In this document: positions 3,795 through 64,000 of the stretch, in pieces
Layout of the letters: every line of letters starts with the position of its first letter
How positions within the stretch are numbered: position 1 is the first letter of the stretch
Virus record (IMG/VR): IMGVR_UViG_2585427708_000005
Strand: one strand, 5' to 3'
From: a virus
Lineage: Duplodnaviria > Heunggongvirae > Uroviricota > Caudoviricetes
Length of the DNA: 64,000 nucleotides
Notes under the pieces: generated by a model
What the model was told of the DNA's origin: nothing
Database searches by the model: none
The model's input: only the letters and a program-made list of their open reading frames with translations
Position numbers and translations under genes: made by a program

Positions 3795-3870
3795 TGGTGG
3801 CCCCTACCGGACTTGAACCGGTGACCGTGCGATTATGAGTCGCCAGCTCTAACCACTGAGCTAAAGGGCC
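3795..3870 (-). tRNA. tRNA-Ile2-like (anticodon CAU, lysidine type; Met cannot be excluded)
   Basis: 76 nt, perfect 7-bp acceptor stem with one G-U, D-arm GCTCAGTGGTTAGAGC, anticodon loop CTCATAA, T-loop GGTTCAAGTCC, encoded CCA; near-identical in arms to E. coli ileX as remembered. Confidence 0.75.
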
Positions 3871-3897
3871 GGATTACTGCCAATTTTGCTTACGCTT

Positions 3898-4725
3898 TTA
3901 TTTCACCGGAACAAACGGAACAGCGGTATTACTGGTCATATACTGCGGTAATGTACCGTTCCATTTGTTGATCGCTTCCAAGTCCATAACACCGGGGTTC
4001 TGGCGCAGAGCTTCACCACGTAAACGAATGGCATCAGCTTCGGCCTGGGCTTTTGTGCGAATAGCATCAGCCTGTCCGGCAGCTTCCGCGCGCAGCATGT
4101 TGGCCTCTGCTTCACGTTGTTTGACCTCTTGCTCGCGTTGCAGGGTTTTTTGGTTTGCCGTGACTTTGGCGTTAATACTGTCAATAACTGTTGGCGGGTA
4201 TTCTGGCTTACCTACATAAGAGAGGCTCATCACCTGAATGCCGATTGGCGTCATTTCTTCCTGAATGTCTTTAAGGGCTGCATCAAGCAATTCAGATTTG
4301 CCACCGTCGATAAATTTGTCGGTGGTCATTTTGCTGGCTAATCGGTTCAGAGCATCTGCAACCTTCTGGCGTAGATCGGTATCAGTAATATCATCTACAC
4401 CTTTGCGATAGGTCTGAAATACCGTTGTGACTTTTGCTGGATCAACCTTGTAGGCTACGCCGATGTGGTAACCAATGGTTGTTCCGTCGCTCATCTGGAA
4501 GCTGAACGGCTCATCGTATGTCTTCATTTGCTTAAAGGTCGGGAAGATATAAACTTCAGTATTCAAGCCTGTCCAGTAGCGACCAACGCCAACTACTTCA
4601 CCGATACCTTTATCATCCCCCAGCTTATTTACTTTGATCCCTACGTTACCTGGCTCTACCCGATCGCATCCGGTCAGACATAAAGAACCCAAAATAATCG
4701 CTGCACTAATCAACGTTTTTTTCAT
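3898..4725 (-). CDS. SPFH/band-7 domain lipoprotein (275 aa)
   Basis: signal peptide with lipobox LCLTGC; SPFH-like core followed by Ala/Glu/Arg-rich coiled coil (QREQEVKQREAEANMLRAEAAGQADAIRTKAQAEADAIR). Confidence 0.65.
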   Translation of the reverse strand: MKKTLISAAIILGSLCLTGCDRVEPGNVGIKVNKLGDDKGIGEVVGVGRYWTGLNTEVYIFPTFKQMKTYDEPFSFQMSDGTTIGYHIGVAYKVDPAKVTTVFQTYRKGVDDITDTDLRQKVADALNRLASKMTTDKFIDGGKSELLDAALKDIQEEMTPIGIQVMSLSYVGKPEYPPTVIDSINAKVTANQKTLQREQEVKQREAEANMLRAEAAGQADAIRTKAQAEADAIRLRGEALRQNPGVMDLEAINKWNGTLPQYMTSNTAVPFVPVK

Positions 4726-4942
4726 TAATTAATTTCCTGGTTTTTTCACGAAAAAAGACTACTGCGAAAGCCGGGTAAATGAGCGCGAGAAGGACTCCCA
4801 ACAATACAAGTATTGTGCTGTTAGATGAGATCATATTTGGCAAAAGCCAAACATACAGAACCAGTGACACAATCAAACAGAGGACGGCATAAATATATAA
4901 CCGCACCCATAGCGTTCGACATTTGTTCGGATTGTTCTGCAT
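4706..4942 (-). CDS. small inner-membrane protein (78 aa, two predicted TM helices), overlapping start of SPFH gene
   Basis: hydrophobic segments YIYAVLCLIVSLVLYVWLL and ILVLLGVLLALIYPAFAVVFF; 20-nt overlap with downstream SPFH gene suggests coupling. Confidence 0.4.
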   Translation of the reverse strand: MQNNPNKCRTLWVRLYIYAVLCLIVSLVLYVWLLPNMISSNSTILVLLGVLLALIYPAFAVVFFREKTRKLINEKNVD

Positions 4943-5815
4943 CCTCTCACTCCATTATTTAACGAATAAAAAAGCTGCGGTGCCGGGTTCCTCCCGGTGT
5001 CCTTTGGCTGGTTATCCACCGTGGACGTGGAAACAAGGAGAAATAATGGACAGATATAACCATTTCCCCGCGTGCGCTTAGCCGCATTCACCGCAACGGA
5101 AAGAGCATTCTTGGTGGACCTGTAGATTGGGATATGAACCCGTTACAGGAGAATGCTCTTACCTGTTACGTGCTCCGTTTCGTGGAGCTAACGGCGGGTG
5201 ATCAGACCGCACCAGACTGGACTTATTTCAGCGTTATGCTCATGCCAGAGAATCAAACTGTGATGGTCGGTGCTGAACTCCGACACAGGGTTGTAGCAAG
5301 CCCCGCAAAGCGCGCACTACTGTAGTTGCGGCACATCAGCCTGTGCATTCACCACAATGTTGAGAACACTGGTTGTCACGCGGCAACGCAACATTTATTC
5401 GTAGATTGGGATATGACCCCGTTACGCCAGTGTTCTCAACGTTGTAGTTGTTATGCGTATTCTCTTACTAACCGCACACCAATACATTTCCCATCACGTT
5501 CATTTGTCTCGAAACGTGAATACTTAAGTTCGCCGTTAATAATCGCTGTTACAACCCGTATCCCGTTAAACGCCCACATATTTCGCTCCATTTACACACA
5601 TTACCAGTCGCCGGTTACGGTTCCGGCCAGGCCTCTTCCTCAACGGGGTGTTCTCCATACGGACTACCGTTTATTGGTCGTTCCTGCGGTTTATGTTGTG
5701 AAGCCAGATGCTTATCTTCTGGTTGCTTCTAAGATCTGCACTTCATCACAACGGTAAGAGCACTCGATGCATTTAAGCCAGGCCCCATAAGGGAGAATGC
5801 TCTTACCTGTTATGT

Positions 5816-5891
5816 TGGTGCCGATTAACGGGATCGAACCGCTGACCATTCGCTTACAAAGCGACTGCTCTACCAACTGAGCTAAATCGGC
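5816..5891 (-). tRNA. tRNA-Thr (anticodon UGU)
   Basis: 76 nt; acceptor GCCGATT/AATCGGC, D-arm GCTCAGTTGGTAGAGC, anticodon loop TTTGTAA, T-loop GGTTCGATCC, encoded CCA. Confidence 0.75.
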
Positions 5892-5895
5892 AATG

Positions 5896-5982
5896 TGGTG
5901 GGGAGTGATGGAGTCGAACCACCCGAGTCGCAATGACAGTAGATTTACAGTCTACCCCGCTACCCCTACGGACTAACTCCCC
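5896..5982 (-). tRNA. type II tRNA-like gene, tRNA-Tyr (GUA)-like, D-arm atypical
   Basis: 87 nt; perfect acceptor GGGGAGT/ACTCCCC, anticodon stem-loop GTAGA-CTGTAAA-TCTAC, long variable arm resembling E. coli tRNA-Tyr, T-arm GGTGG-TTCGACT-CCATC, encoded CCA. Confidence 0.5.
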
Positions 5983-5987
5983 TAAAG

Positions 5988-6062
5988 TGGCGATGGTGGG
6001 TGGATTCGAACTACCGACCAGTTGGTTAACAGCCAACTGCTCTACCGCTGAGCTACACCATC
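5988..6062 (-). tRNA. tRNA-Asn (anticodon GUU)
   Basis: 75 nt; acceptor GATGGTG/CACCATC, D-arm GCTCAGCGGTAGAGC, anticodon loop CTGTTAA, T-loop TTCGAAT, encoded CCA; one A-C mismatch in T-stem. Confidence 0.7.
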
Positions 6063-6727
6063 ACTTGCCGGGTACGTCTCCGGCGAGGGCTTCCACCTCC
6101 GTATGCTTTTCGGCGCACCGCGCCCTGGCTGCAATTCGGTAACAGGGGATGCATAACCCTGGCTTCCAGCGTGATTAGCGCCTTCAGCATGACGGGATAT
6201 ACCCGTAAATTCGTGGAACTGTACCCAAAGTGCTGTTAAGCACCGCTGTTACGCTGAAAAGAAAACGCAACAGGAAAGGACGCTGACCAACAGATGGCCC
6301 CTTCTCGTTCATCTGGTTAATCACACCAGCGCCCTTACCTGTTGTGCCTCCCCGTTCCCTAATACACAGACGGGGACACTCTGCGGTCGATTTTTTGACG
6401 GGGGACGACTCATACCCCATGGCATCTGGCTTCTTAGGCCGCTACCATCATCAGATCATCGTTTGCATTTACTTTAATGGTCAGTTTCTAAACCGCCGCA
6501 AAGTCGCTAACCATGACGAAAACCCTGAAAAAAACGCCCACCCGAAGATGGGCAAACTGGACGCTCGTAACGCACTTCGGCGTTGCCACTTAGGCGCATG
6601 GTCAACCTGGCAACTCGGTGGTTTGTCTGGGAGGACTAGGCCCAGCCATGCTTACCGCCGCGCCTGTCGCGGCTAACAGCTAAATCGCTCTATAAATCAC
6701 GATTCATTGAGGTGATATTACACTAAT

Positions 6728-6744
6728 AAATTTATTAGAGCAAT
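6728..6744. promoter_or_regulatory. C1 repressor operator-like site (AAATTTATTAGAGCAAT), upstream of tRNA-ban operon
   Basis: 17/17 match to reverse complement of P1 C1 operator consensus ATTGCTCTAATAAATTT. Confidence 0.6.
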
Positions 6745-27363: not shown

Positions 27364-27380
27364 AAATTTATTAGAGCAAA
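27364..27380. promoter_or_regulatory. C1 operator-like site upstream of kilA-repL (Op53-like)
   Basis: AAATTTATTAGAGCAAA, 16/17. Confidence 0.6.
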
Positions 27381-27458: not shown

Positions 27459-28502
27459 TTAACCTATTGCTACTGGTTTTAACAAACCAGCATCAAGTAG
27501 CTTGCGAGTTAACCACTGCTGGCCTTTACCCGTTAATTGGGGCGTCAGCCGTATCTGGTAGCCATTTTCATCATCCAGCACCACTTCTTTCACCGTGAAA
27601 TACCCGGCGTTGATGTACTGTTGGCGCGGTACGTTTTTGCGCGCTCCAAAAGCCATGAGAATGCCATTCTGGCGCAACCATGAGAAAAGGGCGTTTTGCT
27701 TAAGTCCAACGACCTTTGCAAAGTTCCCGATCAGGATTCCATTAGCCACTGATACCCGGTCGGCAAAATCGACTTTAGGGGCAGCGGCCACCAGCTGTTG
27801 TTCCAGCTGCATTTTCTGTTCTGCTAACTCGGCAGCCAGGCGTAGAGCTTCTGGTAATGTTTGGGGGATCGATGGGGCAGGGGAGTTTGCCTGCTGCAAT
27901 TCTTCCAGTTTGTCGATCAGCGAACGGCGGACCGCTTTTGACTCGCGCGCGGCGACTCGCAAGGCTTGTTTGTAGGTCATGGTGATGACCTCAAAAGAGC
28001 GCCCAGCCCTTGTGCCATGGGATTTTGCACTTTTTGTGTAAAATTCACCTTCAAGTTCATCGAGTATTTTTTCGATGAATTTATTGTTTCTAACCTCTGG
28101 TTCTCCACATAACTTGCGTGCCTCATTGACCATCTTCAACAATGTTTGGCTGTCGATTGTGTCTCCGGTGTTGGGGATGACATTCACGGCTGGTGTTGGC
28201 GTAGCTGACGTAACAGGTGCTGGTTTCTCAACATTCAAATTTTTACCGGTCACTCTATGTGCCTCCTTTCTCATTTCTGCTGCCACCGTTGCGTAACGTA
28301 GACGTCCTTGTTCAATCAAATAATCCCTGATCTCGGCTATCAGTAGCCTGTTGATCACTGCCTTATCTGTTCGGGTATAAAAACGCCTGGTTATCATGAA
28401 ATAGTTGGCAATTGCGCCGGGGATCTCCCGCGTCGGCATACAGGCAGTATGCAGGGCGATTGCTTCGGCTATGTCATTACGGGTGACGAGAGGTTTTTTC
28501 AT
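27459..28502 (-). CDS. ant: antirepressor Ant (AntA N-domain plus KilAC C-domain)
   Basis: 347 aa; start codon overlaps icd stop (translational coupling); C-terminal KilAC domain. Confidence 0.8.
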   Translation of the reverse strand: MKKPLVTRNDIAEAIALHTACMPTREIPGAIANYFMITRRFYTRTDKAVINRLLIAEIRDYLIEQGRLRYATVAAEMRKEAHRVTGKNLNVEKPAPVTSATPTPAVNVIPNTGDTIDSQTLLKMVNEARKLCGEPEVRNNKFIEKILDELEGEFYTKSAKSHGTRAGRSFEVITMTYKQALRVAARESKAVRRSLIDKLEELQQANSPAPSIPQTLPEALRLAAELAEQKMQLEQQLVAAAPKVDFADRVSVANGILIGNFAKVVGLKQNALFSWLRQNGILMAFGARKNVPRQQYINAGYFTVKEVVLDDENGYQIRLTPQLTGKGQQWLTRKLLDAGLLKPVAIG

Positions 28503-28720
28503 AAAACCCCCTGAACGTCGGCAGAGAAGGGGAGGTTCCAGTAACTAAGTGAATTGCGCGAGTTAGTTGAAAAACGGGCAGTAAAAATGCAGGGGCCATC
28601 AGGCAATTGAGAGCGTGCTTCGTCTTCAGTTGCTGCGATAACGAAGTGATAGTGGTGTTTTTTACAGGAATAGAAACGCCAGATGAATTCTGGGCGTGTG
28701 CAAGGATTGGCATTAACCAT
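28499..28720 (-). CDS. icd: Icd-like small protein (73 aa) upstream of ant
   Basis: 73 aa, coupled to ant; paralogue at 63667-63888; SD embedded in c4 target box. Confidence 0.6.
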   Translation of the reverse strand: MVNANPCTRPEFIWRFYSCKKHHYHFVIAATEDEARSQLPDGPCIFTARFSTNSRNSLSYWNLPFSADVQGVL

Positions 28721-28769
28721 AGTTACGGCCTCACTAACAGGTTTAACAACCTGCTACCCGCTGTCAAAC

Positions 28770-28850
28770 AGGTGGCAGGACGTGACAGGGTTGACAGACT
28801 GGCGTTAGTGAAACCAGCAGGCCGAAGCCTCCCCATCACGCCCCACCATA
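28770..28850 (-). ncRNA. c4: c4-like antisense RNA region of immI module 1 (boundaries approximate)
   Basis: contains boxes CACTAA and CTGTCA complementary to TTAGTG/TGACAG targets found upstream and at the icd RBS; conserved with module 2 except in these boxes. Confidence 0.35.
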
Positions 28851-29033
28851 ATTCGGGCGTAACGCGGTTTACGGACACAAAAATACCGCAATATCGGAAA
28901 TCTGCGGTTGTCCGCACTAACATTCAGGCTGTCAAACCCGGTCGCAGAATTTGCTACGACGGCGGAACTATAAGCCTGAACGATTAAAAGGTCAATATGA
29001 TGCGAAAAGATAGCATTCGTGACTTAAAAATAC

Positions 29034-29050
29034 AAATTTATTAGAGCATT
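29034..29050. promoter_or_regulatory. C1 operator-like site upstream of c4-icd-ant (Op51-like)
   Basis: AAATTTATTAGAGCATT, 16/17. Confidence 0.6.
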
Positions 29051-41885: not shown

Positions 41886-42463
41886 TGACATTCAGAATGA
41901 GTGAACAATCACGGACCATAAAAATTTATAATCTACTGGCTGGAACCAATGAGTTTATTGGTGAAGGTGATGCATACATTCCACCTCATACAGGTCTGCC
42001 TGCAAACAGTACCGATATTGCCCCGCCAGATATTCCGGCTGGCTTCGTGGCCGTTTTCAACAGTGATGAGGCATCGTGGAATCTCGTTGAAGACCATCGG
42101 GGAAAAACCGTCTATGACGTGGCTTCCGGCGACGCGTTATTTATTTCTGAACTTGGCCCATTACCGGAAAATGTCACCTGGTTATCCCCGGAAGGGGAGT
42201 TTCAGAAGTGGAACGGCACAGCCTGGGTGAAAGATGCAGAAGCAGAAAAACTGTTCCGGATCCGGAAGGCGGAAGAAACAAAAAACAGCCTGATGCAGAT
42301 GGCCAGTGAGCATATTGCGCCACTTCAGGATGCCGTAGATTTGGATATTGCGACGGAGGAAGAGGCATCGTTACTGACTGCATGGAAGACATATCGGGTA
42401 TTGTTGAATCGTGTTGATACAACAGTAGCATCGGATGTTGAGTGGCCAGTCGCCCCGCAATAA
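41885..42463 (+). CDS. tail fibre assembly protein (Tfa/U-like)
   Basis: 192 aa; coupled to S (ATGA overlap); N-terminal pattern typical of Tfa chaperones. Confidence 0.8.
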
Positions 42464-63073: not shown

Positions 63074-63332
63074 AGCGCCCCTACAAAAAAGAAAAGCCAC
63101 CAGCGGCGGCTTAGCAATACAACTGAAGGTATCGCCCGGTACTCAGACTGTGCCGTCCATGGAATATTTGAAAAGGGATCCATCCGTACCGGGCGTGTGA
63201 TGATTCTGACTGAAGTCACTTGTCAGTTGTCAATCATTTATCATTAAAAATAATATATTTATTAGTGCATACAAATAAGACACTAAGTGTGCACATTGCA
63301 ACCTCAGAGAGGAAACATTCAACCAGATTGTT

Positions 63333-63349
63333 ATTGCTCTAATAAATTT
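63333..63349. promoter_or_regulatory. C1 operator, exact consensus ATTGCTCTAATAAATTT, upstream of second c4-icd-ant module
   Basis: 17/17 match; weaker second site at ~63255-63270. Confidence 0.65.
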
Positions 63350-63539
63350 GATTTATTGAAACAAATAAACTACTATTGGACGCCAGACTATTGATCTTCC
63401 TGTTGTTCAGGCTTATAGTTCCTACGTCGTAGCAAATTCTGCGACCGGGTTTAGCAGCCTGAATGTACATGCGGACAACCGCAGATTTCCGATATTGCGG
63501 TATTTTTATGTCCGTAAAACCGCGTTACGCCCGAATTAT

Positions 63540-63615
63540 GGTGGGGCGTGATGGGGAGGCTTCGGCCTGCTGGTTTCATGTACGCCAGTCTGCTAACCCC
63601 GTCACGTCCTGCCAC
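63540..63615 (+). ncRNA. c4-like antisense RNA region of second immI module (boundaries approximate)
   Basis: boxes CATGTA (63576-63581) and CTGCTA (63589-63594) complementary to TACATG/TAGCAG targets at 63452-63471 and 63620-63654. Confidence 0.35.
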
Positions 63616-63666
63616 CCGTTTAGCAGCGGGTAGCAGGTTGTTAAACCTGTACATGAGGCCGTAACT

Positions 63667-63888
63667 ATGGTTAATGCCAATCCTTGCGCACGCCCTGAAT
63701 TTATCTGGCGCTTTTACTCCTGCCAAAAACGTCACTATCACTTCGTTATCGCACCAACAGAAGATGAGGCACGTTCTCAGCTTCCGGATGCTCCCTGTAT
63801 TTTCTCTGCCCGCTTTTCTACCGATTTGCGCAATTCTCTCAGTTACTGGTGCCTCCCTGTTAACGCTTCTGCTCAGGAGGGGCTATGA
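63667..63888 (+). CDS. Icd-like small protein (73 aa), paralogue of 28499-28720
   Basis: 73 aa, ~80% identical to module-1 Icd; stop overlaps ant-like start (ATGA). Confidence 0.6.
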   Translation: MVNANPCARPEFIWRFYSCQKRHYHFVIAPTEDEARSQLPDAPCIFSARFSTDLRNSLSYWCLPVNASAQEGL

Positions 63889-64000
63889 GAACGTCATTAG
63901 TCACCCGTGAAGAGATGATCGAGGCAATTGAACAGCACACTGCCTGTATCAGTACCAGGGATATACCAGGCGTTATTGCCAACTACTTCATGATCACCAA
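63885..64000 (+). CDS. antirepressor Ant-like protein, N-terminal fragment (continues beyond window)
   Basis: MRTSLVTREEMIEAIEQHTACISTRDIPGVIANYFMIT aligns with N-terminus of Ant at 27459-28502. Confidence 0.6.
   Translation, partial: MRTSLVTREEMIEAIEQHTACISTRDIPGVIANYFMIT

Follow-up and report, generated by a model that had tools for sequence, protein, structure and literature searches.

The second c4–icd–ant locus (module 2) of the P1-like phage-plasmid described here is likely a self-contained immunity cassette of the P1 immI type, which has its own antisense specificity and is one of three such cassettes on the element. The window, i.e., the whole stretch of 64,000 nucleotides of IMG/VR record IMGVR_UViG_2585427708_000005 that was analysed, ends within this cassette; its part between 62000 and 64000 is 100% identical to plasmid unnamed2 of E. 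coli 2014C-3011 (NZ_CP027590.1, 92,449 bp), in which the cassette is complete. A sequence-only reading of the window had placed two operator–c4–icd–ant modules in it, and their coordinates and motifs agree with the sequence. In support of that, the Rfam search that this reading had proposed gave matches above the gathering score at both modules. The C4 family (RF01695, gathering score 45) matched module 2 at 63534–63619 (+) with 71.7 bits and module 1 at 28768–28853 (-) with 68.8 bits, while the c4-a1b1 family (RF03163, gathering score 46.7) matched at 63413–63465 (+) with 53.2 bits and at 28921–28973 (-), so that an a1b1 target element lies about 70 nt upstream of each of the two C4 genes of the window.

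A third icd–ant pair is located between pacB and c1 in NZ_CP027590.1, about 5.7 kb past the window end. No further C4 was found in the remaining 19.7 kb of NZ_CP027590.1, and thus the plasmid has three c4 modules in total. The count of two modules therefore held for the window, but not for the element, whose third module lies outside the window. Similarly, module 2 is on the plus strand with its operator at 63333, as had been described, but it directly follows mat and not res.

Architecture of the module 2 cassette and its origin

The similarity to P1 (res, mat) ends at window position 63271, directly 3' of the P1 Omat operator, and new DNA starts at 63272. The inserted cassette of 1,729 bp exactly replaces P1 ref, with the Omat operator on one side and the sequence upstream of c8 on the other: the flanking sequences (L001 8000–10271 and 12001–14067) match P1 on either side of ref, and the interval between them does not match P1 ref. 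The predicted order of parts in module 2 is that of P1 immI (Op51-P51a/b-a1b1-c4-a2b2-icd-ant1/2), namely the C1 operator and promoters, a1/b1, the 77-nt c4, a2/b2, icd and ant, and the c4 fold is the same as well (Table 1). Module 2 also keeps the positions of the operator, promoter, targets and icd/ant overlap, together with the leader backbone. It differs from P1 immI in adjoining mat, in place of ref, rather than kilA-repL, in the sequences of its boxes, in its upstream promoter region, which is unrelated except for the operator, and in the ORF6N central domain of its Ant. Module 1 is the P1 operon, its c4 and a2–b2 stretch being identical to those of P1.

As in P1-type immI, a predicted C1 operator for the outer promoter is accompanied in module 2 by a candidate inner constitutive promoter. 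Sites matching the C1 operator with at most three mismatches occur 8 times in the window, compared with 0.47 expected. Two overlapping matches on opposite strands at 6717–6744, one perfect and one with 2 mismatches, look like a bivalent operator. The GAGG Shine–Dalgarno sequence of module 2 icd precedes the ATG at 63667 by 11 nt. Module 2 Ant, which is 370 aa long in NZ_CP027590.1, contains ORF6N and KilAC domains (PF03374 at 1e-31). Unrelated to the c4 modules, the window also has a full-length match to Rfam IS009 RNA at 42228–42426 (+; 192 bits) and, at 3798–6062 (-), four clustered tRNA genes.

Table 1. Features of the three c4 modules. Positions are those of the window unless L001 (NZ_CP027590.1) is given.
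Feature	Position	Strand	Basis and remarks
Omat C1 operator of P1, retained	63254–63271	+	transferred from P1 annotation (L002 4244–4261); left edge of the cassette swap
Module 2 cassette	63272–64000	+	full 1,729 bp at L001 10272–12000; cut by the window end; replaces P1 ref
C1 operator (Op51/Oc4 equivalent) ATTGCTCTAATAAATTT	63333–63349	+	perfect consensus match; same position as annotated P1 Oc4
Sigma-70-like promoter TTGATC-17-TATAGT	63391–63419	+	promoter scan; aligns with P1 constitutive P1c4 (P51b); putative function
a1b1 leader element, module 2	63413–63471	+	Rfam RF03163; complementarity and covariation with c4
a1 TTAGCAG, module 2	63451–63457	+	
b1 GTACATG, module 2	63465–63471	+	
Terminator-like hairpin ACCGCA...TGCGGT, then U-run, module 2	63478–63507	+	between b1 and c4; MFE folds
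c4 antisense RNA, module 2	63540–63616	+	77 nt by homology to P1; Rfam RF01695; P1 c4 coordinates
b' CAUGUAC of module 2 c4	63577–63583	+	unpaired; hairpin loop of predicted fold
a' CUGCUAA of module 2 c4	63590–63596	+	unpaired; single-stranded junction of predicted fold
Downstream targets a2 and b2, module 2	63620–63658	+	100% pairing with c4; compensatory changes
a2 TTAGCAG, module 2	63620–63626	+	
b2 GTACATGA, module 2	63649–63656	+	overlaps icd Shine–Dalgarno GAGG (63655–63658)
icd, 73 aa, module 2	63667–63888	+	cell-division inhibitor homologue; annotation of identical record
ant, 5' end, module 2	63885–64000	+	first 38 codons in window; start overlaps icd stop (ATGA, 63885–63888)
Boxes of P1 and module 1 (target / in c4)			a TTGACAG / CUGUCAA; b GTTAGTG / CACUAAC
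Boxes of P7 (target / in c4)			a TTAGCAG / CUGCUAA; b GATTGTG / CACAAUC
Boxes of module 2 (target / in c4)			a TTAGCAG / CUGCUAA; b GTACATG / CAUGUAC
Module 1, P1-type immI	27459–29050	-	leader 98.9% identical to P1
Op51, module 1	29034–29050	-	C1 operator
a1b1, module 1	28921–28973	-	Rfam RF03163
Leader hairpin and U-run, module 1	about 28873–28902	-	by homology
c4, module 1	28771–28847	-	b' 28804–28810; a' 28791–28797
a2; b2, module 1	28761–28767; 28731–28738	-	c4 targets
icd; ant1, module 1	28499–28720; 27459–28502	-	
Op53-like operator	27364–27380		3' of module 1, followed by kilA
Module 3, operator–c4–icd–ant	L001 15670–17350	-	pacB–c1 interval; C4 match 75.9 bits
Leader hairpin and U-run, module 3	L001 about 17165–17190	-	canonical GACGC-loop-GCGUC-UUUUUUU

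Module 2 had been described as a duplicate of module 1. This description is wrong, since the homology to module 1 is limited to the leader and the start of icd. In a per-100-nt identity profile, nucleotides ~100–500 of the cassette, which comprise the leader, c4 and the icd start, are 76–98% identical to module 1. From about icd codon 10 to its end, the cassette shares 94% identity with module 3, rising to 100% across the rest of icd, and most of module 2 ant is 33–67% identical to module 1 and 83–100% identical to module 3. The profile places the recombination joint to the module-3-like body near icd codon 10. Moreover, Ant of module 2 shares about 93% identity with Ant of module 3, and both have ORF6N and KilAC domains, whereas the P1-type Ant1 of module 1 has KilAC only, without ORF6N. 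These comparisons show module 2 to be a recombinant, in which a P1/P7-like leader is joined to the icd–ant body of the pacB–c1 cassette. As judged from the sequence, one effector pair sits under two different RNA locks, those of modules 2 and 3.

Each of the three leaders has, between b1 and c4, a hairpin with a U-run after it, which could release a short a1b1 RNA. A possible attenuator, in which c4 pairing with b1 would switch an anti-terminator to a terminator, was rejected, as MFE folds keep the hairpin and U-run whether a1/b1 are blocked or not. The a1b1-equivalent leader of module 3 (L001 17167–17244, minus strand) matched the Rfam isrK family (RF01394) with 60.8 bits at a gathering score of 50. 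IsrK has been described as a short RNA acting on its own long mRNA. Like the module 3 leader, IsrK of the Salmonella Gifsy-1 isrK-orf45-anrP region lies 5' of an anti-repressor gene and ends with a terminator-like hairpin. The match suggests that IsrK and the a1b1 leaders of anti-repressor operons of the c4 type may be homologues; we know of no c4 role described for IsrK.

Box changes and specificity of the c4 RNAs

The leaders of modules 1 and 2 can be aligned almost without gaps from the P51b-like promoter to the icd ATG. Of the 27 differences in this 279-nt alignment, 15 fall in six 7-nt boxes, which occupy 42 nt (Fisher p=2e-7); their names, a and b, are taken from the annotation of the P1 record. 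At a1/b1, TTAGTG of module 1 is replaced in module 2 by TACATG, and TGACAG by TAGCAG; the same changes are found at a2/b2, and their complements inside c4. Thus, the leaders are indeed near-identical except for boxes that changed together, as the sequence-only reading had claimed, and the alignment with P1 and P7 c4, which it had proposed, places the differing boxes in c4 itself, where they make up its two unpaired stretches, and in the c4 targets. The proposed structure prediction fits this as well. In the predicted fold of module 2 c4 (-45.3 kcal/mol, z -5.5, MFE structure equal to the centroid), which consists of a long closing stem and two internal elements, both variable boxes are unpaired. 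Moreover, the c4 RNAs of all three modules have one Y-shaped predicted fold, in which b' lies in a 9–10-nt hairpin loop and a' in a 7–8-nt junction. In module 3, the c4 loop box is CCUUGGAC and the junction box AGGCCAA, and the targets are GUCUAAGG and UUGGCC/UUGGUC.

The a' and b' boxes of module 2 c4 form 7/7 and 8/8 Watson–Crick pairs with their own a2 and b2, and match the upstream copies a1 and b1 just as perfectly. One target copy had been noticed immediately 5' of the icd Shine–Dalgarno sequence, and b2 does overlap it. The covariation of c4 boxes and targets with 100% pairing supports the proposal that antisense c4 would occlude the icd ribosome-binding site, each with a specificity of its own. 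The boxes of modules 1 and 2 are distinct in both a and b, as had been stated, but with respect to P1 and P7 together only the b box of module 2 is new: its a box is the P7 allele, while its b box is found in neither phage and differs from that of P7 at 4/7 positions (CAUGUAC versus CACAAUC). P7, with its single module, follows the same principle, by which a few compensated base changes give a new immunity specificity.

P1 and P7 are heteroimmune (PMC12197685, PMC6906374) with two base differences in each box. Modules 1 and 2 differ at 5 of the 14 recognition bases of c4, compared with 4 for P1 and P7, which makes it sound to infer that they do not cross-react. The predicted duplex energies of cognate c4–target pairs range from -20 to -22 kcal/mol, whereas the values are -6.7 kcal/mol for module 1 c4 on the module 2 target and -14.8 kcal/mol for the reverse combination. 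In the heteroimmune P1/P7 pair, the corresponding energies are -9.3 kcal/mol for P1 c4 on the P7 target and -14.3 kcal/mol for P7 c4 on the P1 target. By this comparison each c4 should control only its own ant, and modules 1 and 2 should not cross-repress. Unconstrained duplex prediction found a 6-bp match (UAGCAG) for module 2 a' in the module 1 leader, and partial cross-talk via a single shared a box is possible, the a box of module 2 being common to P7 and to co-resident modules elsewhere.

c4 cassettes in related plasmids and phages

The multi-module arrangement is absent from P1 and P7, each of which has one module; the statement that P1 has one immI locus was correct. Two modules in one element, which had been called unusual, are unusual against P1 and P7, but many of the P1-like plasmids sequenced have icd/ant in several copies. 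In PLSDB, icd occurs at 1,134 places in 690 plasmids, and in an evenly spread sample of 60 of them two copies were found in 21, three in 6 and four in 1, so that about 47% of the sampled icd-bearing plasmids have two to four copies. The exact mat–module 2 junction is present in 49 PLSDB records and in 41 of 5,426 complete E. coli genomes, as well as in phage vB_EcoM-Ro157c2YLVW; several of the E. coli strains with the junction are O111:H8 or come from cattle or veal.

Extra icd/ant genes at the same loci as here are known in the P1-/D6-like elements pTZ20_1P, RCS47, pSvP1 and pYU39_89, in the form of ant in pacB–c1, icd–ant homologues near res/mat and a second c4–icd region. Within the literature examined, these were described as ORFs and homologies, without c4 box specificity, target covariation or orthogonality. 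Venturini et al. 2019 mentioned ant between pacB and c1 and icd–ant homologues near res (PMC6906374), the mat–c8 and pacB–c1 intervals are known variable regions (PMC6906374), a D6-like plasmid has a second c4–icd without ant (PMC6799933), and multi-copy icd/ant is mentioned in passing at the ORF level (PMC6906374, PMC6799933). A full-text literature search, with several classical P1 papers outside its reach, found no paper analysing the c4 specificity of the extra cassettes. The mechanism is thus one already known, here stacked and combinatorial; its arrangement is common among sequenced plasmids, but we found it barely described.

A c4 scan of IMG/VR gave at least 156 distinct c4 genes on at least 134 contigs. 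The c4 genes listed represent at least 13 box combinations, built from seven b' alleles, two a' alleles and the module-3 class, and each of the five main b' alleles was found with both a' alleles. For each of the 119 listed P1-backbone genes whose flanks are complete, all four target boxes (a1, b1, a2 and b2) can pair with the c4 of that gene, whereas non-cognate loops passed the same test in only 5 of 1,672 control trials. Likewise, in an alignment of 19 leaders, standard pairs occupy 285/285 cells for a2/b2 and 266/266 for a1/b1, as opposed to 27–48% in slid controls, eight pairs have compensatory changes in both partners, and no pair has a change in just one of them. This comparative evidence strongly supports the predicted c4–target pairing, including that at the a1/b1 sites, which are still labelled putative in the P1 record.

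Among the multi-c4 contigs listed, 13 of 14 carry distinct types only. The only identical c4 types on one contig, among the matches listed, are those of a tandem duplicate in IMGVR_UViG_2698536372_000019 (L059, L210), with module-3-type c4 genes about 1.6 kb apart. The 97-kb P1-like contig IMGVR_UViG_2703718869_000013 (loci L018, L023, L098, L133, L181, L203) has five c4 genes, all with different combinations, two of which have the b box CATGTAC in common and differ only in the a box. The types are also distributed by site: among the c4 genes listed, CATGTAC was found in 13/16 at mat–c8 and in 0/66 at the primary immI, and the module-3 class in 28/29 at pacB–c1. Avoidance of identical co-resident types was not significant (about 15 pairs, expected identity 0.13 per pair, p about 0.13). 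As the pattern of distinct types is confounded with the insertion site, shared ancestry could explain it without selection for orthogonality among co-resident cassettes, which is plausible but unproven. Full icd and ant are intact in 13/13 mat-side and 23/24 pacB–c1 cassettes of those listed. At least 17 IMG/VR c4–icd loci in an "other/unknown" context have an intact icd without an overlapping ant ORF.

Proposed function and alternative explanations

In P1, the operon transcript yields c4, which keeps the anti-repressor silent (P1 record annotation; PMC8198154; PMC12197685). In module 2, one transcript starting from the promoters at the C1 operator would carry a1/b1, c4, a2/b2, icd and ant, and c4 would be cut from it as a ~77-nt RNA. 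The processed c4 would then pair with a2/b2 and block the translation of icd. Since icd and ant are translationally coupled, this block would also turn ant off, leaving the anti-repressor silent in the lysogen and unable to inactivate C1. All sequence requirements of the P1-type mechanism are present in module 2. Work of the Schuster laboratory on P1 reportedly concerned the RNase P processing of c4 and Rho-dependent polarity.

As to why several cassettes are carried, the most far-reaching interpretation, which we consider less likely than not, is that they form a combinatorial two-box antisense code, with up to five orthogonal cassettes stacked at the immI, mat–c8 and pacB–c1 hot spots, acting as a shield and as skeleton keys in contests between related elements. 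The placing of the same Ant under different RNA locks in modules 2 and 3 would, as a part of this reading, be deliberate. A resident with stacked orthogonal locks would silence the ant of incoming relatives that have the c4 types carried by the resident, and an invader would express Ant unless the resident matched every lock; this advantage of stacking to either side is offered only as a hypothesis. The a1b1 leader, which has a terminator-like hairpin at its end and, in module 3, scores as IsrK, might also be released as a short RNA and titrate c4.

Alternatively, the extra cassettes could be neutral recombination debris of heteroimmune P1-like phages, deposited at hot spots and tolerated, without benefit, because each brings its own c4 and silences itself. 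Such an origin would fit the known variability of the mat–c8 and pacB–c1 intervals (PMC6906374), the visibly recombinant structure of module 2, the partition of types by site, as expected from cassette ancestry, and the lack of a statistically demonstrable avoidance of identical types in the listed contigs. However, all parts are intact in the 13/13 and 23/24 listed cassettes, the box complementarity is perfect at 119/119 listed loci, and the arrangement occurs widely, with as many as 5 cassettes on a contig, and we regard neutral debris as rather unlikely. As an unrepressed ant would kill lysogeny, purifying selection on c4 is expected even in a selfish cassette; since it is expected either way, this explanation differs from our main one, of self-contained cassettes with their own specificity, with respect to benefit only, and not to mechanism.

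The c4 RNAs could also partly repress one another's targets, via the shared a box and short matches, and so form a cross-regulating network tuning total Ant, in which the modules would act as a hierarchy or buffer. In the P1-backbone class, only two alleles of the a box occur, and co-resident modules often have the same one, e.g., the three CTGCTAA modules on contig 651053023_000001, and non-cognate duplex energies reach -14 to -17 kcal/mol. Against that, two base differences per box suffice to make P1 and P7 heteroimmune (PMC12197685, PMC6906374), modules 1 and 2 differ in both boxes, and the b box, which overlaps the ribosome-binding site, differs in all listed co-resident pairs but two, namely the tandem duplicate and the CATGTAC pair on the five-c4 contig, which differs only in the a box. 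A network of this kind thus seems improbable to us. Even harder to reconcile with the data is an addiction or abortive-infection module, with Icd as the toxin and c4 RNA as the antitoxin, in which extra copies would stabilise the plasmid or kill superinfected cells. In type I toxin–antitoxin systems, a labile antisense RNA and a stable toxin mRNA are made from separate promoters. The c4 RNA, unlike labile type I antitoxins, is predicted to be very stable (-45 kcal/mol), and it shares one promoter and transcript with the icd mRNA, so that plasmid loss would remove both. Furthermore, icd is coupled to a full-length ant in NZ_CP027590.1. The c4–icd loci without an overlapping ant ORF in IMG/VR (at least 17), the second c4–icd without ant in a D6-like plasmid (PMC6799933) and the inhibition of division by Icd, which targets FtsZ (PMC11897509), would suit such a role, which we nevertheless consider highly improbable.

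P1/P7 heteroimmunity, the textbook example of phage immunity whose specificity is set by an antisense RNA, has been treated as a matter of a single locus and two alleles. In the element described here and its relatives, natural alleles are numerous, their targets are perfectly compensated, and one genome may hold several cassettes. The c4 cassettes amount to a natural collection, ready for use, of RNA repressor/target pairs that are predicted to be orthogonal. Many such plasmids are found in Shiga-toxin-producing E. coli strains, and P1-like plasmids can, according to the literature, carry resistance genes. Taken together, these cassettes provide a tractable system for studying how RNA-based immunity diversifies, and whether stacked locks decide the contests of related phage-plasmids.
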